Below, piece by piece: positions 1,899 through 50,142 of a DNA stretch of 64,000 bases. The position numbers were made by a program, and so were the translations under genes. The stretch spans positions 3,375 through 67,374 of the forward strand of contig SFNQ01000015.1 in NCBI GenBank assembly GCA_004554165.1, read 5' to 3'. The stretch is from Clostridiales bacterium. Its GTDB lineage: Bacteria > Bacillota > Clostridia > Christensenellales > CAG-138. The notes beneath the pieces were generated by a model that was given only the letters and a program-made list of their open reading frames with translations, did not search any database and was not told where the DNA came from. How positions within the stretch are numbered: the stretch's first letter is position 1; every line of letters starts with the position of its first letter.

Positions 1899-2869
1899 AG
1901 CAAGGCGACAATTTTCAGTACGAGTACTTTTCCTCTGTCACACAGCGCAAGGTCGAGTGGCTTTGGTATCCATATATCCCTTACGGGAAACTGACGATAC
2001 TGCAGGGTGACCCCGGCGAAGGCAAGTCCACGTTCATGCTCAACATCGCGGCGCTGCTGACCCGGGGCAAAGAGATGCCTGACGGGTTCCGTGTACCCGA
2101 GCCACAGCGGGTCGTGTACCAGACTGCGGAGGATAATCTTTCCGACACCGTGAAACCCCGCCTGGTAGCAGCCGGTGCGGATTGCAGTCGGATCGCATAT
2201 ATCATCGACGAGGATCGGCCTTTGACCTTGGAGGATTCGCGGATCGAAAAAGTGATACAGGAAACGCATGCCCGGCTTTTTATCCTCGACCCGCTGCAGG
2301 CGTATCTGTCTCAGGACTCCGATATGTTCAGCGCAGGCAGGATGCGTCAGCAGCTAAGACGGCTGGCGGATATCGCCTCAAAGCATAAATGCGCCATCGT
2401 AGTGATCGGCCACATGAACAAGGCAAGCGGAGAGAAGAATCTCTACCGAGGCCTTGGAAGCATCGACATCGCCGCCATAGCGCGAAGCGTGCTGATGATC
2501 TCACGGGACAAGGATGACCCCTCGATCCGGTATATGTTTCCGGTCAAATCGAGCCTCGCTCCGGAAGGTGCCGCCATAGCGTTTTCCTTCAATCCGAAGT
2601 CAGGGTTAAGGTGGATCGGTCAATGTCATGTGGATCAAAGTCAGATCGAGGATTTCGATATAGACGACAGCAAGAAGGCGCTGGCAAAACGCATCATACT
2701 TGAAATGCTCAGCGAACAGGATACGCATAGTTCGATCATCCTGAACAAGCTCAAGCTCATGGGCATTTCGGAGCGGACGATACACTCTGCCAAGAAGGAA
2801 GTGGGCGTACAGTCATACAGAAGTGATGGGGTTTGGTACTGGCATTTAGATACCCCGTTAGACACATAA
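1895..2869 (+). CDS. RecA/DnaB-like AAA ATPase (AAA_25-type) with C-terminal winged-helix-like tail
   Basis: WLWYPYIPYGKLTILQGDPGEGKST (Walker A), LFILDP (Walker B-like), VVIGHMNK. ATG 1895 overlaps the XRE stop as ATGA; alternative ATG at 1883. Confidence 0.8.
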   Translation: MKQGDNFQYEYFSSVTQRKVEWLWYPYIPYGKLTILQGDPGEGKSTFMLNIAALLTRGKEMPDGFRVPEPQRVVYQTAEDNLSDTVKPRLVAAGADCSRIAYIIDEDRPLTLEDSRIEKVIQETHARLFILDPLQAYLSQDSDMFSAGRMRQQLRRLADIASKHKCAIVVIGHMNKASGEKNLYRGLGSIDIAAIARSVLMISRDKDDPSIRYMFPVKSSLAPEGAAIAFSFNPKSGLRWIGQCHVDQSQIEDFDIDDSKKALAKRIILEMLSEQDTHSSIILNKLKLMGISERTIHSAKKEVGVQSYRSDGVWYWHLDTPLDT

Positions 2870-2881
2870 AGGAGGAACGCG

Positions 2882-4711
2882 ATGCAGGATAATGGCCGCA
2901 GGGAGCAACTGCGTCAGATCTATCAGCGGGAGGACACAGGAGAAAAAACATTCATTCCGGCAAAGCCGAAGATCAACCCAAATGAACGGGATCGCTTCTT
3001 TCGGGTTTGCGCATATTGTCGTGTCTCGACCGATAACGATGAGCAGCTTTCCTCTTTCGAACTCCAGCAGGCGCATTACCGTCAGCTGGTGCAGGAGCAT
3101 CCGAATTGGGAACTCAAGCACATATTTGCGGATCAGGGCATATCCGGGACCTCACTCAAAAACCGGGACCAGTTCAATGCGATGATCGAAGCGTGCAAAA
3201 AAGGCGAATACGATCTCATACTCACAAAGAGCGTATCCCGTTTTGCACGAAACCTGGTGGACTGCATTTCTTTGATCCGCATGCTGAAAGGCCTGACGCC
3301 ACCCGTCGGCGTTTTCTTTGAAACGGACAATTTGTACACGCTCGGGGAGAACACCGAGTTCATGCTTTCTTTTCTCGCCACGTTCGCACAGGAGGAGTCG
3401 GTCAAGAAGAGTGAGTCCATGAACTGGTCGCTGCAGCAGCGGTTCAAGGATGGAAAGCTCTTGACCCCGGCACCGCTTGGCTACGATCGGGAGAAGGACG
3501 CTGCCGGGCACTACGTCAAATACGCTCCGTTACTGCTGAACGAATCCGAAGCCCGGATCGTCCAGTTCATTTACGACGCGTACCTTGCCGGATGGTCACA
3601 GGAAGGCATCGCGGAACTGCTGAAGGATATCGGCTGCCTGACCAAGACCGGGAGCACGGACTGGACCGCCAGCGCTATAGGCTACATCCTGACAAACGAG
3701 CGCTACGTGGGCAACGTCCTCACATGGAAGACCTTTACCGCCGATCTGTACGAACACAAACATAAGAAGAATAGACAGGATCGTGACCAGTACCTGTACC
3801 ACGACCGGCATCCCGCCATAGTCAGCGTGGAAAAGTTCGAGGCGGTCCAGTCGCTGATACAGAACCGAAAGCATCACGTTCGAGGCGGCCTTCCTTCCCT
3901 CCAAGTCATTGATGAGGGCATATTCCGGGGCTATATCCCGATCAACCACCATTGGGTGAATGACGATCCGCATGTCTACTATGACATTTCCAATTCCGTC
4001 ACCAAGGTCATGAGGGTGAAAACGTTCGACAAACGGTCGTTCAGTGCATTCGATCTTTCGGGGTATCAGGTGGTTCGGAACCAGTTCACGCAGGTCCGGT
4101 ACGAAGGACCTTCCATCACGATCGCGGGCAACCGGATCTCATTCAATCTTTTCTGCATGCGCACCTTTGAGGACGTCGGCTATATCCAGCTGCTCCTTCA
4201 CCCGGCAGAGAGAAAGATTGCTATACGTCCGTGCCGTGAACGCGACACGCACAGTATCCGATGGCGGCCCGATCCCGAAAAAGCGGTGTTCCAGAAAACA
4301 CTGAGCTGTCAACACTTTGGGACAGCCCTCTTCAGCATTATGGAATGGGACCCGGATTACATCTACCGAGTACGCGGAACATGGGCAAAACGCGGTCAGG
4401 AGCAGATCATAGTATTCAATCTCATGAACGCGGTCCCGGCGGTTCTGGTGACTCCCGAGAACGCAGACAGTCCTGCCCGCAGGCGAATGGAACTGTGCCC
4501 TGCGGAATGGTCGGATGACTTTGGCGACGAATTCTATGAGCATGTTCTGGAGAACGGATTCTATTACCTCGCTCCGGACAACGAGTGGAAGACAACGGTG
4601 GCCAGCATTCCTGCTCCGGGGATGGAACAGTTTACTGTCCCGACCGCCGAGCAGATTCAACTAACAATAGAAAACCTAACGAGAGGAACGGAAACACCTA
4701 ATGATGGATGA
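2882..4711 (+). CDS. Large serine recombinase lacking a zinc ribbon, with a novel ~170-aa C-terminal module
   Basis: AGGAGG before ATG 2882. Catalytic region CAYCRVSTD, LTKSVSRFARN, recombinase domain (ERYVGNV, HPAIVSVEKFEAVQ). No CxxC pairs afterwards; instead a module paralogous to the next three ORFs. Confidence 0.9.
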   Translation: MQDNGRREQLRQIYQREDTGEKTFIPAKPKINPNERDRFFRVCAYCRVSTDNDEQLSSFELQQAHYRQLVQEHPNWELKHIFADQGISGTSLKNRDQFNAMIEACKKGEYDLILTKSVSRFARNLVDCISLIRMLKGLTPPVGVFFETDNLYTLGENTEFMLSFLATFAQEESVKKSESMNWSLQQRFKDGKLLTPAPLGYDREKDAAGHYVKYAPLLLNESEARIVQFIYDAYLAGWSQEGIAELLKDIGCLTKTGSTDWTASAIGYILTNERYVGNVLTWKTFTADLYEHKHKKNRQDRDQYLYHDRHPAIVSVEKFEAVQSLIQNRKHHVRGGLPSLQVIDEGIFRGYIPINHHWVNDDPHVYYDISNSVTKVMRVKTFDKRSFSAFDLSGYQVVRNQFTQVRYEGPSITIAGNRISFNLFCMRTFEDVGYIQLLLHPAERKIAIRPCRERDTHSIRWRPDPEKAVFQKTLSCQHFGTALFSIMEWDPDYIYRVRGTWAKRGQEQIIVFNLMNAVPAVLVTPENADSPARRRMELCPAEWSDDFGDEFYEHVLENGFYYLAPDNEWKTTVASIPAPGMEQFTVPTAEQIQLTIENLTRGTETPNDG

Positions 4712-5303
4712 TCAAACTGAACAGATTTTCACGAACGCAGAAGTAATCACCGAAGCCGACGCCGAAACGGAGGTCCTTGCGGATCTCGCAGGGTACCAGG
4801 TCACCAAGGCAGAATTGTTCTCCCATACACGGGAGCCCGCCATTACGATCTGGGAGTCCCGGATCAAATTCAATATGGCCTGCCTGAGGAAATTTCCGAA
4901 TGTCACCCACATCCAGATCCTGATCCATCCGGAGCAAAAGCGGCTCATCATCCGCCCGTGTGAACCGGACGCACCGGATTCCCTTCGCTGGGCAAAGGGC
5001 GGCGGCGATAAGGAGCTCACAAACAGGGACCTGCTGTGCAGGCTGTTTGCCGCGAAGATTTTTGACCTGATGGGCTGGGATAATCAGTACCGCTATAAGA
5101 TGATGGGCAAACCCGCCGTGTACAACAACGAGGTCCTGTTCCTTTTCAGACTAACGGATTTTGAGCTGTTCACGAACGGGAAAAAGTCGAAATCGTATCT
5201 TCCCGGTGAGTGGCGGGATTACTTCGGCACGCCTGTCGAGCAGCATGAGGAATCATTCAAGATCGATCTTGCGGATGGATACATCACAACAACTAAAGCC
5301 TAA
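4701..5303 (+). CDS. Hypothetical protein, paralog of the recombinase C-terminal module
   Basis: Shares ordered motifs with residues ~395-560 of ORF 2882..4711 (GYQV, ITIW.SRIKFN, IQILIHPEQKRLIIRPC, SLRW, GWDNQYRY, LFLFRL, PGEWRDYFG). Start overlaps the recombinase stop. Confidence 0.7.
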   Translation: MMDDQTEQIFTNAEVITEADAETEVLADLAGYQVTKAELFSHTREPAITIWESRIKFNMACLRKFPNVTHIQILIHPEQKRLIIRPCEPDAPDSLRWAKGGGDKELTNRDLLCRLFAAKIFDLMGWDNQYRYKMMGKPAVYNNEVLFLFRLTDFELFTNGKKSKSYLPGEWRDYFGTPVEQHEESFKIDLADGYITTTKA

Positions 5304-25100: not shown

Positions 25101-25667
25101 ATGGATTTTACCCGCATTACGGAACAGGCCCATGAAGCGGCCGACATTCTGCTCAACGCCGCGCAGCCCGCGGCAGGCGAAATCTGCGTCATCGGCTGCT
25201 CCACCAGCGAAGTCGCAGGCCAGCGCATCGGCTCCGCTTCAAGTCTGGATGTTGCCCGCGCCATCATGGACGGGCTGCTGCCGCCCCTTGCGCAGGCAGG
25301 CGTGTTCGTGGCGGTACAGGGCTGCGAGCACATCAACCGCGCGCTGTGCGTCTCAAAAAACTGCATGGAAAAATACGGGCTGGAGCCGGTTGCCGTGGAG
25401 CCCTGGCTTCGCGCGGGCGGCGCGTTCATCACGGAGGCCTTCGCCCGTTTTTCCGGCTGCGTCATGGTGGAGGATCTCAGAGCAAGAGCGACCCTCGGCA
25501 TGGACATCGGCGGCACGCTCATCGGCATGCATCTTCGTCCGGTCGTCGTGCCCATTCATACGGATTTGAGACGCATCGGCGAGGCAAACCTTATCCTCGC
25601 CCGCTGCCGTCCGAAGTACATTGGCGGCCCGAGAGCCCATTATGGAGGGCTGGAAAGCGCGCATTAA
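25101..25667 (+). CDS. TIGR01440 (UPF0340/DUF436) family protein
   Basis: ICVIGCSTSEVAGQRIG...VQGCEHINRAL...GMDIGGTLIGMH. Confidence 0.85.
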   Translation: MDFTRITEQAHEAADILLNAAQPAAGEICVIGCSTSEVAGQRIGSASSLDVARAIMDGLLPPLAQAGVFVAVQGCEHINRALCVSKNCMEKYGLEPVAVEPWLRAGGAFITEAFARFSGCVMVEDLRARATLGMDIGGTLIGMHLRPVVVPIHTDLRRIGEANLILARCRPKYIGGPRAHYGGLESAH

Positions 25668-25730
25668 ATCTGTTTTTTGGGGTTATTTTTACAAAAACCC
25701 TTGTTTTTGGGCCGAAAATTAGAATAATGT

Positions 25731-25760
25731 TTGCATTGTGACAAGTACTTGTTTTATAAT
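25731..25760 (+). promoter_or_regulatory. Sigma-70-type promoter
   Basis: TTGCAT(25731-25736)-N18-TATAAT(25755-25760). The predicted start is about 25766-25768. Confidence 0.55.
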
Positions 25761-25766
25761 GCAAGA

Positions 25767-25988
25767 GGTATCCGCATGCGGGTCTGTGGTTGAAAATCGA
25801 TGCCAGTCGCAGGCGAAACGATCCACGTAAGCGGAAAAAGAGTTCCGTGAGCATGGTGCGGTCTAGATGTAAGTCCAACCGGGGCGACCCGAGAGGGGCA
25901 GTAGTGGGGAGCCGAAGCAGGCTTATGAGCGAACCCTCCCGTTGGCGAGTGTGGGGGCAAAAACCAGGTCAGCCGCCATTCGGATACC
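25767..25988 (+). ncRNA. Unassigned structured RNA or 5' leader (~220 nt) upstream of the zinc-ribbon gene
   Basis: Long-range closing helix: 25767-25774 with 25981-25988, extended by ATG/CAT, CGG/CCG, CTG/CAG and GGTT/AACC. Internal hairpins at 25796-25822, 25824-25849 and 25907-25940. Sits in a 362-nt gap with no credible ORF. Confidence 0.4.
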
Positions 25989-26029
25989 AAAAAAATTAAC
26001 TGCCAAAGGCAAAGGGGAAAGAAAGTAAC

Positions 26030-26305
26030 ATGTTCGAAGACAAGACACTGGTTTGCAAGGACTGCGGCGCGGAATTCGTTTTCACCGCAGGCGAGCAGGA
26101 GTTCTACGCGGAGAAGGGCTTCCAGAACGAGCCCGTCCGCTGCAAGGCCTGCCGTTCCAACCGTAAGTCCCAGCGCGGCGGCGAGCGCGAAATGTTCGAT
26201 GCGGTCTGCGCTGAGTGCGGCGCGCCCACGAAGATCCCGTTCCAGCCGCGCAACGACCGTCCCATCTATTGCAGCGAATGCTTCCAGAACCACAAAAACC
26301 ACTAA
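26030..26305 (+). CDS. Duplicated CxxC zinc-ribbon protein
   Basis: CKDCGAEF...CKAC and CAECGAPT...CSEC, 91 aa. Confidence 0.8.
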   Translation: MFEDKTLVCKDCGAEFVFTAGEQEFYAEKGFQNEPVRCKACRSNRKSQRGGEREMFDAVCAECGAPTKIPFQPRNDRPIYCSECFQNHKNH

Positions 26306-26336
26306 CTCTTGTCTTTTGACCTGAGTAAAACCGACC

Positions 26337-26377
26337 CGGGGAATGGACGCGATCCAACGTCCGTTCCCCGTTTTTTT
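26337..26377 (+). terminator. Rho-independent terminator
   Basis: CGGGGAATGGACG/CGTCCGTTCCCCG stem (one G-U pair) followed by T7. Confidence 0.75.
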
Positions 26378-26581
26378 GCACGCAGGAAGGCGTTGGGGGA
26401 GTTATCGTGCAAAGGACGCATGGGGCGGTGACGGGAGATGACTCGATGGTCAGCCAGCTGTGTATCGAAGAGCCTCCAATCACCGTCCTATGCGCCCTTT
26501 ACTGTATAGCTCTCCCAACGAACTCCTTCATAGCTATACTGTCCAACCTGTTTGACAAACCTACAAAGGCTTGCACGCGCA

Positions 26582-27065: not shown

Positions 27066-27115
27066 GAGAACCGGGAAGGATGACACAGGGCTTCCGGCGC
27101 TGCCGGAAGCCCTGT

Positions 27116-27281
27116 GACTGTCGAAAAAGCGGAAGCCTCCACTTTTTCGAGAATATCTCAAGGGCAGCTTGCGCCTGCAGCGCGGCCAGCCGCCCTTGCA
27201 GGGAAAGCCTTGCTTCGCAAGCGCTTTTGCGGATCCGGCGTACATGCCGCCGGATCCGAACAAAGCCTCCGGGGGCTGTGT
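27116..27281 (+). repeat. 166-bp repeat unit, copy 1
   Basis: GACTGTCGAAAAAG.GGAAGCCTCCACTTTTTCGAGAATATCTCAAGGGCAGC...GGATCCGGCGTACATGCCGCCGGATCC...CCTCCGGGGGCTG. Confidence 0.9.
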
Positions 27282-27444
27282 GACTGTCGAAAAAGTGGAA
27301 GCCTCCACTTTTTCGAGAATATCTCAAGGGCAGCTTGCGCCTGCGGCGCGGCCAGCCGCCCTTGCAGGGAAAGCCTTGCTTCGCAAGCGCTTTTGCGGAT
27401 CCGGCGTACATGCCGCCGGATCCGAACAAAGCCTCCGGGGGCTG
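27282..27444 (+). repeat. 166-bp repeat unit, copy 2 (tandem with copy 1)
   Basis: Near-identical to copy 1, with a few substitutions by eye. The period 27116 to 27282 is 166 bp. Confidence 0.9.
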
Positions 27445-27688
27445 GGAAGCCCTCATGAGATTGTCGAAAAACTCCGGGGTTGATAAGGGGCCGCAGCCCC
27501 TTATGTGCAATCCGGCTCTGACGACAAGTGCGTCAGAACGGATGAAAACCCAGAGGTTTTCGTACTTTGCAGGTTTTGCCGCCCGGGAGCTGATGCGAGA
27601 GGCAAAACCTGTGAAAGCTCGAAAAAGTGGCGTTCAGCCACTTTTTCGACACTCTGATGAGGGCTTCCGGCGCTGCCGGAAGCCCTGT

Positions 27689-27851
27689 GACTGCCAAAAA
27701 AGTGGAAGCCTCCACTTTTTCTAGAATATCTCAAGGGCAGCTTGCGCCTGCAGCGCGGTCAGCCGCCCTTGCAGGGAAAGCCTTGCTTCGCAAGCGCTTT
27801 TGCGGATCCGGCGTACATGCCGCCGGATCCGAACAAAGCCTCCGGGGGCTG
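27689..27851 (+). repeat. 166-bp repeat unit, copy 3
   Basis: Same unit after a 245-bp unique hairpin-rich spacer; a few substitutions (e.g. GACTGCCAAAAAAG). Confidence 0.9.
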
Positions 27852-27885
27852 CGGCCCCCGAAGCCCCCAAATATTTATCGACAGA

Positions 27886-27923
27886 ACGAGGGCTTCCGGC
27901 GCTGCCGGAAGCCCTCGTTTTTT
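27886..27923 (+). terminator. Terminator-shaped copy of the repeat hairpin
   Basis: ACGAGGGCTTCCGGC/GCCGGAAGCCCTCGT 15-bp stem followed by T6. Confidence 0.5.
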
Positions 27924-48644: not shown

Positions 48645-49859
48645 TCAATAGATCAGGTTCTTGCCGTCCTTGTCGAACATGTGGATGACGTTGGGGCCGA
48701 AGGTAAAGTTGACCGGGTCGCCATAGCGGAAGCCCAGACGGTGCTCCTCCGGCAGATCCACCGTGGCAAGCACGATGACCACGTCCTTGCCGTTGGCGGT
48801 GACGTGCAGGTGAATGGAGCTGCCCATCATCTCGGACACGTCCACGGAGGCCTTGATGTGGCTTTCCAGCGCGGTCTCGCTGCAAAGCATGATGTGCTCC
48901 GGGCGGACGCCGAGGGTGATGTCCTGCGGCGCCACGTTCCTGTCCCGCAGAAGCTGCTGCTTGTCGGCGGCCAGAGCAAAGTCTGCGCCGTAGAGGGTAA
49001 CGTAGTAGTCGCCGTTGGCGCTTCTCTGGAGCCTTGCGCCGTCAAAGAGGTTCATCTGCGGCGTGCCGATAAAGCCGGCCACAAAGAGGTTTGCCGGCGC
49101 ATCGAACACCTGCTGCGGCGTGCCGATCTGCTGGATCAGGCCATCCTTCATGATGACGATGCGGTCGCCCAGCGTCATGGCCTCGGTCTGGTCATGGGTA
49201 ACATAGATAAAAGTGGTATCGATGCGCTGGCGGAGCTTGATGATCTCGGCGCGCATCTGGTTTCTGAGTTTTGCATCCAGATTGGAGAGCGGCTCGTCCA
49301 TCAGGAAGACCTGCGGCTCGCGGACGATGGCGCGGCCGATGGCAACGCGCTGACGCTGGCCGCCGGAAAGGGCCTTGGGCTTTCTCTGAAGATACTCGGT
49401 GATATCGAGAATCTCCGCGGCCTGGCGAACCCGTTCGTCGATCTCCTTCTTGGGCATTTTGCGAAGCTTGAGCGCAAAGGCCATGTTTTCATACACGGTC
49501 ATGTGCGGGTAGAGCGCGTAGTTCTGGAAGACCATCGCGATATCGCGATCCTTGGGCGCAACATCGTTGACCAGCCGGTCGCCGATGTAGAGCTCGCCCT
49601 CGGAGATCTCCTCAAGGCCGGCAATCATGCGCAGCGTTGTGGACTTGCCGCAGCCGGAGGGGCCGACGAGCACGATGAATTCCTTGTCGGCGATCTCAAG
49701 ATTGAAGTCCTGTACCGCGACCACACCCTTGTCCGTTCGGAGCAGGTTCGGCTTGCTCTCTTCCGATGCGGCTTCGTCCTTTTTCTTTTTGGACTCTTTG
49801 CCCTCGTTGCCGGAATAGGGGTAGATCTTCTTGATGTTCTTCAGGGTTACGTTTGCCAT
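48645..49859 (-). CDS. Sugar-type ABC transporter ATP-binding protein (MalK/MsmX/UgpC-like)
   Basis: GPSGCGKST, LSGGQRQR, FLMDEPLSNLD, C-terminal regulatory domain. A Lys/Glu-rich insertion lies near the N-terminus. Confidence 0.93.
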   Translation of the reverse strand: MANVTLKNIKKIYPYSGNEGKESKKKKDEAASEESKPNLLRTDKGVVAVQDFNLEIADKEFIVLVGPSGCGKSTTLRMIAGLEEISEGELYIGDRLVNDVAPKDRDIAMVFQNYALYPHMTVYENMAFALKLRKMPKKEIDERVRQAAEILDITEYLQRKPKALSGGQRQRVAIGRAIVREPQVFLMDEPLSNLDAKLRNQMRAEIIKLRQRIDTTFIYVTHDQTEAMTLGDRIVIMKDGLIQQIGTPQQVFDAPANLFVAGFIGTPQMNLFDGARLQRSANGDYYVTLYGADFALAADKQQLLRDRNVAPQDITLGVRPEHIMLCSETALESHIKASVDVSEMMGSSIHLHVTANGKDVVIVLATVDLPEEHRLGFRYGDPVNFTFGPNVIHMFDKDGKNLIY

Positions 49860-50142
49860 ACCATTTGACTTTGACGGGCACGAACTCCTTCAACTGCCCG
49901 CCTCGCCGCAGCCCGCATTGGTGGCGGCGGCATTACGGCAGGTCTCCACACTGCCGCACCGCAAGTCCGCGGAAAACAGCCTCCTTCTTTTGTCGTCGCG
50001 GGCCTAGGTAGTGGAGTAGACGCCGCACGATATACTTATTCTTATTATCGCCGAAAAACCCGGCAAAGGCAAGGGAAATTTGCCGGCGCGCCGGGTTTGC
50101 GTAAATTCGGGCGGGCAGCCCGTGGCCTTTTGTCTCCGCCTG

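Follow-up and report, generated by a model that had tools for sequence, protein, structure and literature searches.

The window, by which we mean the whole 64,000-nt stretch of DNA that was analysed, contains a non-coding gap of 362 nt between an upstream open reading frame (25101-25667) and an ATG at position 26030. These coordinates were checked by script and the region 25500-26400 was inspected; the coordinates of the earlier note on this DNA were all found to be correct. On the plus strand the gap holds two promoter-like hexamers, a structured RNA (25767-25988) and a short spacer, which is followed by the gene of a small zinc-finger protein (26030-26305). On the 5' side of the RNA, a MutY-like gene on the minus strand is followed by a DUF436/TIGR01440 gene on the plus strand. 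The same gene order was found in ten metagenome contigs of the same species, in which the RNA segment was 100% identical.

The RNA had been described in the earlier note as unassigned and as matching no known class. This label is wrong, because a cmscan search of the whole window returned a full-length match to the raiA/ModT motif (Rfam RF03072), a family that the note itself had proposed for testing. The match covers 25773-25982 on the plus strand and model positions 1-209 of 209, with a score of 182.3 bits (E = 2e-46), while the Rfam gathering score for this family is 101.3 bits. Addition of six further outer pairs of the closing helix P1a extends the element to 25767-25988. Among the 85 highly conserved (upper-case) consensus positions of RF03072, 84 are identical in the window RNA; the single deviation is at model position 24, where G is replaced by A at 25796 and the P3a pair is kept as A-U. 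Every sequence and structure feature of family membership that could be tested was present. Among named organisms, those closest to the locus belong to the Clostridia (Candidatus Pelethousia, and MAGs of Acutalibacteraceae and Oscillospiraceae), in agreement with the occurrence in Bacillota and Actinomycetota expected of RF03072. The typical but non-defining gene context, with comFC upstream and hpf (raiA) downstream, was absent here, and no hpf homolog was found in the 64-kb window; the published frequencies of this context are only 74% for comFC upstream and 66% for hpf/raiA downstream (PMC10861870). Hence the RNA at 25767-25988 is a member of the known raiA/ModT family and not a new class. 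Descriptions of this family date back to 2017; it is now catalogued for more than 2,700 species, and cryo-EM structures are available.

The decisive covariance-model match places the RNA beyond chance. Folding energy alone was not significant (z = -1.56, with 11 of 200 shuffled sequences folding as well), so that folding of the single sequence speaks neither for nor against an RNA. For an independent comparative test, one genome per species was scanned with a subtype-independent pattern of the 3' core, GAGTNTGGGGNCAAANNCCAGGTCAG, which gave 120 raiA loci; these belong to Clostridia, Negativicutes, Coriobacteriia and Acidimicrobiia. The window RNA and 52 RNAs of similar length were then aligned (53 sequences). 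The structure tested consisted of the Rfam helices, the published pseudoknot pk-1 with the P3 loop (PMC11751092) and the outer extension of P1 from the earlier note. Overall, 85% of the cells of this alignment were paired and 44 of the 60 pairs changed on both sides, and none of 500 shuffles reached the observed values. The helices P1b, P1c, P3a, P3b, pk-1, P5 and P6 were 94-100% paired. The structured RNA of about 220 nt that had been proposed from the letters of the sequence is therefore real, as shown by the family match together with covariation in the 53 sequences.

The long closing helix was also described correctly. The 5' strand of P1a (25767-25781) pairs with 25973-25988 in 15 bp that are interrupted by a C-U mismatch and a bulged C, and the six outer pairs of the earlier note (25767-72/25983-88) lengthen the 9-bp P1a of Rfam to this size. 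The four innermost pairs were 92-100% paired with double-sided changes. By fixed columns of the 53-sequence alignment the outer part was only about 45% paired, because insertions and deletions blur the columns. When single sequences were folded, P1a measured about 14-16 nt per strand in most of the homologs linked to a zinc-finger gene; these lengths were read by eye, since the automatic count of base pairs stopped at internal loops. A conserved length of P1a has also been reported (PMC12968392). Inside P1a, the Rfam alignment places the GU bulge at 25782-83, P1b at 25784-86/25970-72, P1c at 25787-91/25962-66 and the GGU bulge at 25967-69. P1b and P1c were 99.6-100% paired, and both bulges are described as conserved tertiary elements (PMC12968392).

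The hairpin at 25796-25822 consists of P3a (25796-99/25819-22) and P3b (25802-04/25812-14), both of which were 100% paired with compensatory changes. It is the hairpin that had been noticed before as ATCG..GCC/GGC..CGAT. Its loop (25805-25811) pairs with 25857-25863 to form pk-1, as described for the family (PMC11751092); this pseudoknot was 99.7% paired across six pairs, three of which changed on both sides. P5 (25831-36/25843-48) was 94.3% paired, and all of its six pairs changed on both sides. A conserved single-stranded linker, UAGAUGUAAG, follows pk-1 at 25864-25873 and fits the family consensus UAGAaGUAA. [quoted passage not shown] According to the Rfam alignment, this 3' domain (within 25875-25945) is made of P6 (25875-79/25941-45), P7 with a GCGA loop (25880-83/25888-91) and P8 (25895-98/25935-38 and inner pairs) with the AGUA/GAA E-loop. 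Pairing was 100% in P6, 84% in P7 and 87% in the outer stem of P8, all with double-sided changes. The window RNA belongs to the subtype without P2 and with P8. In addition, CCAC at 25823-26 is complementary to GUGG at 25951-54 and is a candidate for P4, which along with pk-2 makes core contacts in the cryo-EM structures; both strands were invariant in our sample, in part as a consequence of the search pattern, by which the 3' strand was fixed.

All the helix segments of the earlier note are fully complementary (25767-74/25981-88, 25776-78/25977-79, 25779-81/25973-75, 25784-86/25970-72, 25788-91/25962-65, ATCG/CGAT, CACG/CGTG and GGGAG/CTCCC). Two of them did not withstand comparison: the hairpins CACG/CGTG (25824-27/25846-49) and GGGAG/CTCCC (25907-11/25936-40) were 61.6% paired across the homologs, versus 62.4% in shuffled alignments. 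These two were rejected, as they show no covariation and clash with the covarying P5 and with P8 and its E-loop.

In front of the RNA, a -35-like hexamer TTGCAT (25731-25736) and a -10 hexamer TATAAT (25755-25760) are separated by 18 nt on the plus strand. A simple consensus scan for generic promoters called no site at raiA, because the -35 box matches TTGACA at only three of six positions. Conservation of position across species was examined in its place. Upstream sequence was usable in 25 of the zinc-finger-linked homologs, every one of which carries a -10 box; in 23 it is a perfect TATAAT. In 24 of the 25 it ends 17-25 nt, most often 20-22 nt, ahead of the invariant GUCUGUGG, and a TTGnnn box (mostly TTGC) recurs 16-19 nt, mostly 17 nt, upstream of it. 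The sigma-A-type promoter TTGCAT-N18-TATAAT claimed for this RNA is thus present, and its position is conserved across species. Since the -10 box keeps its place relative to GUCUGUGG, the start of transcription is predicted on or just before the first base of P1a, at about 25766-25768; the earlier note, which put the start at the closing helix's first base, agrees with this spacing. For ModT, a single sigma-A promoter has been described (PMC11706538).

In the 41-nt spacer behind the RNA (25989-26029), an A-rich tract precedes the ribosome-binding site AGGGGA (26013-26018). No intrinsic terminator was found between raiA and the zinc-finger gene by a simple consensus scan of the plus strand. The same scan found the first terminator-like site only past the gene (26337-26377), with a hairpin at 26337-26370 of 13 bp (9 G-C) and a run of seven T. 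The remark that no terminator follows the closing helix was therefore right, and the downstream site is the probable end of a transcription unit comprising raiA and the gene. This layout recurs in the homologous loci. In 28 loci, the window included, the distance from the CAG of P1b to the ATG is 37-71 nt with one outlier of 118 nt, and across the linked loci the ATG lies about 25-45 nt past P1a. These spacers are A/T-rich with a strong ribosome-binding site and no other conservation of sequence. A terminator-like site lies between raiA and the gene in only one of the 28 loci (again counting the window), and within 150 nt past the stop codon of the zinc-finger gene in 21 of 25 homologous loci. 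For comparison, such a site follows soon after the RNA in 22 of 91 other raiA loci. From the conserved spacing and the terminator placed only after the gene, we infer a unit of promoter, raiA, zinc-finger gene and terminator. The operon-like layout can be read directly from these loci, and it makes co-transcription of raiA and the gene likely.

The gene at 26030-26305 encodes, on the plus strand, a protein of 91 amino acids with two Cys4 modules. These match zf_Tbcl (PF13451, 3.7e-27) and zf_Tbcl_2 (PF23477, 1.8e-21) in Pfam and TIGR04272 (CxxC-x17-CxxC) in NCBIfam. An AlphaFold2 model was obtained with a mean pLDDT of 85.9. A Foldseek search with this model gave no match with E < 0.1 or TM > 0.3, and a sequence search of the PDB gave only a non-significant match to the zinc ribbon of eIF2-beta (E = 0.72). 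The protein family is large: 7,112 clusters bear no other name than "zinc-ribbon domain containing protein". For related small CxxC-x17-CxxC proteins of Methanosarcina, binding of zinc has been shown (PMC12704099). Members of the domain family also occur in archaea, in which the raiA papers report no raiA.

The association of this gene with raiA was examined from both sides. Starting from the RNA, we found a zinc-finger homolog (57-90% identity) within 700 nt downstream of raiA on the same strand in 27 of the 120 sampled loci, all from other genomes; the window was counted separately as the 28th locus of this class. Within the same distance, further loci carried hpf/raiA (32 of 120), secA in Acidimicrobiia (22), a family-3 solute-binding protein (22) or response regulators (6). 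The pair was kept in at least three flanking contexts. A mutY-DUF436 context is shared by the window and loci L062, L012, L099 and L211, while recD2-comFC upstream and/or hpf downstream of the pair were found in L036, L070, L109, L110, L114, L064 and the Gehongia-type loci L212 and L213, in which raiA was confirmed at 181-182 bits; the remaining pairs had other surroundings. These contexts include an insertion of the gene between raiA and hpf in the canonical locus, and recD2-comFC-raiA-zinc finger-hpf is the locus type of Gehongia tenuis or a close relative.

Starting from the protein, the best 80 metagenome loci (66-88% identity) were collected. Core motifs of raiA were present upstream in 19 of 77, and in at least 20 after a check with Rfam. 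This check was applied to 20 ortholog loci negative for the motifs, of which 19 had no raiA within 2.5 kb and one had a raiA that the regular expression had missed. About three quarters of the close orthologs therefore lack a nearby raiA, and the gene does not depend on it. Furthermore, linked and unlinked zinc-finger proteins cluster apart, the nearest neighbour having the same state for 99 of 103. Hence an obligate genomic partnership of the zinc-finger gene with raiA was rejected. The linkage is rather a stable trait of particular clades.

Function in this organism can be approached through the two species in which the RNA was studied. raiA/ModT is among the most abundant cellular RNAs and has its own promoter; its knock-out impairs sporulation, aggregation and the transition to stationary phase, defects for which complementation in trans was observed (PMC10861870, PMC11706538). 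ModT is linked to this transition via c-di-GMP (PMC11706538). Structurally, the RNA is monomeric and compact (PMC12286853, PMC11751092, PMC12968392). No binding of small molecules was found in vitro (PMC5737381), and KhpA-KhpB, which bind raiA in vitro at about 2 uM (PMC12968392), are the only proteins reported to do so. Because of this published abundance, the own promoter, the rescue in trans, the compact monomer and the lack of a known ligand, we read the element in the window as a trans-acting raiA gene.

Taken as a whole, it is highly probable that this locus is the raiA (ModT) non-coding RNA gene of the organism, with the published fold and a trans-acting product, lacking its own terminator and transcribed into the zinc-finger gene. 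In the model that we propose, the sigma-A-type promoter would start transcription at about 25767, the first base of P1a. The RNA of about 222 nt takes the published raiA fold, with P1a-c and their GU and GGU bulges, the bent P3a/P3b joined to pk-1, P5, the exposed linker UAGAUGUAA, and P6-P8 with the E-loop. Transcription would most likely run on for 41 nt into the zinc-finger gene and end at 26337-26377. Trimming or processing of the longer transcript would then release the mature RNA, a stable product, from its 5' part, and the A/U-rich spacer would be the likely site of trimming. By homology with the two tested species, the RNA most likely acts in trans. It would be abundant and stable, might be bound by KhpA/KhpB, and may influence the stationary-phase transition and sporulation. 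Transcript ends, abundance and action in trans are extrapolated here from Clostridium acetobutylicum and Clostridioides difficile.

The model may further be extended to the zinc-finger protein (zf_Tbcl + zf_Tbcl_2), which could be a functional partner of raiA in Clostridia of the Oscillospirales and Christensenellales type, either as a component of a raiA ribonucleoprotein or as an effector or chaperone made in step with the RNA. Preservation of the pair through at least three changes of flanking context argues for such a role, whereas the many close orthologs without adjacent raiA and the extension of the domain family to archaea argue against it. On balance we regard this partnership as possible but rather unlikely.

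The earlier note preferred a riboswitch-like leader over a free small RNA, that is, a cis-acting element which senses a ligand such as Zn2+ and controls the zinc-finger gene behind it. Several observations are those that such a leader would give. Between RNA and gene there is no terminator and too little space for a separate promoter, and this junction is conserved in 28 genome loci (window included) and at least 20 metagenome loci. A tight, conserved and terminator-less junction is what one would expect of a cis-acting leader, the RNA has a complex, aptamer-like fold, and Rfam itself types RF03072 as "Cis-reg; riboswitch". However, no expression platform is seen: 27 of the 28 loci lack a terminator at this junction, the fold of the spacer with its ribosome-binding site is not better than that of shuffles (z = +0.5), and beyond A/T-richness and the ribosome-binding site the spacers are not conserved. 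With spacer structure within chance and no sign of an expression platform, a riboswitch-like role is unlikely, and nothing observed speaks for Zn2+ as a ligand. Moreover, the same RNA precedes unrelated genes of no consistent functional class (hpf, secA, solute-binding-protein, zinc-finger and response-regulator genes in the numbers given above), often at distances of hundreds of nt (PMC10861870, PMC5737381). The 19 of 20 tested orthologs without raiA within 2.5 kb also show that the zinc-finger gene needs no raiA leader. Finally, the knock-outs were complemented in trans (PMC10861870, PMC11706538), and the search for small-molecule binding was negative (PMC5737381). We therefore set the earlier preference aside and consider a ligand-sensing leader improbable; a passive effect of raiA in cis on expression of the zinc-finger gene may nevertheless occur.

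With the raiA gene as the preferred reading, its 3' end still calls for an explanation, because an RNA without its own terminator needs some processing step. It could be a ribozyme or self-processing RNA, able for example to release itself from the zinc-finger mRNA or to cut other RNAs. Published work has raised catalysis as a speculation, and the size, complexity and number of invariant nucleotides do resemble those of ribozymes (PMC10861870, PMC11751092), while the terminator-less layout implies 3' processing if a discrete RNA is made. However, no catalytic activity is reported in the raiA papers examined, and ordinary RNases acting on the A/U-rich spacer would suffice; a catalytic role is accordingly given very little weight. 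As for a small protein in place of the RNA, the plus-strand frame of 69 codons with a TTG start (25790-25999) has practically no chance of being a gene and was rejected, since it is open for at least 60 codons in only 6 of 53 homologs (median 27 codons), length differences in 32 of the 53 are not multiples of three, and substitutions are compensatory within helices; the conserved small protein that the earlier note had named as an alternative is thus not encoded there.

As the RNA class was already known, the transcription unit of raiA and the zinc-finger gene represents a modest lead. This unit is not mentioned in the main texts of the raiA papers examined, to which the comparison was confined, and authors who surveyed the gene neighbourhoods of raiA reported no strong candidate for a protein partner. 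A unit conserved within clades offers a lead both on the processing of the RNA and on a protein that may be its partner. It indicates that a raiA gene can lack a terminator of its own, a point of relevance to the formation of the mature 3' end. If the zinc-finger protein truly were a partner of raiA, the operon would be the first genomic handle on the biochemistry of this RNA.

Comparison with other structured RNAs helps to place the locus. Like riboswitches, raiA occupies the 5' region of a likely mRNA and folds into a complex, conserved structure that a P1 helix closes. Unlike them, it has no expression platform or known ligand, its downstream genes are variable, and genetic evidence points to action in trans. 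In the case of OLE RNA, the neighbouring genes (oapA and others) encode its protein partners, and their adjacency pointed to the ribonucleoprotein partner (cited in PMC10861870). The present locus is similar in that a large conserved non-coding RNA of Firmicutes lies beside a small protein gene, but most close zinc-finger orthologs are not beside raiA and the partnership here is only putative. 6S RNA (ssrS) of Escherichia coli is co-transcribed with ygfA and then trimmed to its mature size, and its mechanism is known: it mimics promoter DNA and binds RNA polymerase. The likeness lies in an abundant, growth-phase-linked and trans-acting structured RNA made from the 5' part of the transcript of a protein gene, whereas its sequence and fold are unrelated to those of raiA, for which co-transcription is likely from the layout of the locus. 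The closest counterparts are raiA/ModT of C. acetobutylicum and C. difficile themselves. In the canonical locus comFC lies upstream and hpf (raiA) follows downstream at a distance of hundreds of nt, whereas the window has DUF436 upstream and the zinc-finger gene 41 nt downstream. ModT of C. difficile has two termination sites, and the fragment used for rescue in C. acetobutylicum carried the RNA's own terminator, while the raiA of the window has none. The RNAs agree in other features: a sigma-A-type promoter stands directly in front of ModT as it does in the window, the raiA of C. acetobutylicum is of the same subtype without P2 and with P8, and the RNAs of both species (cryo-EM, e.g. 9ELY) share with the window RNA the helices P1a-c, P3a/b, pk-1, P5 and P6-P8 with the E-loop, as well as the UAGAxGUAA linker and the invariant bulges.

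In the Gehongia-type loci L212 and L213 (region 2665-5084), which have the gene order recD2-comFC-raiA-zinc finger-hpf, the Rfam raiA match extends over 295 nt (2665-2959) as compared with ~210 nt in the window, and therefore their RNA carries an insertion of ~85 nt. Between the zinc-finger gene and hpf of these loci there are two unannotated ORFs of 159 and 42 aa. Among the genome contigs, the L084 raiA locus has a zinc-finger homolog with 57% identity which is not located immediately downstream of raiA, lying ~2.7 kb upstream on the opposite strand. This arrangement may represent an intermediate or broken form of the raiA/zinc-finger linkage. Identical Clostridia-type loci with the zinc-finger gene directly 3' of raiA were also found in genome contigs binned as Alloprevotella sp. 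(L018) and Bacteroidaceae bacterium (L042). Since the raiA papers place the family in Bacillota and Actinomycetota only, these two loci are most likely contamination of the bins.

In the window, the spacer between raiA and the zinc-finger gene contains a terminator-like site on the minus strand (26000-26012), in which TTGCCTTTGGCAG is followed by TTAATTTTTT. As there is no minus-strand gene converging on this site, its detection is probably a side effect of the A-run 3' of P1a, the long closing helix of raiA. Besides raiA, Rfam also matches a malK-I RNA (RF03069) in the window, on the minus strand at 49854-50034. This match covers the full length of the model (1-181) and scores 127.5 bits, where the gathering score is 60.3.

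A repeat of ~166 nt is present in three intergenic copies (27087-27278, 27253-27444 and 27660-27851). The copies, within 27087-27916, share 91-97% identity with one another, and each contains palindromic hairpins such as AGGGCTTCCGGCGCTGCCGGAAGCCCT. The length of the repeat-bearing spacer is 299, 532 or 761 nt among metagenome contigs of the same species, and the repeat therefore resembles a REP/MITE-type element of variable copy number.
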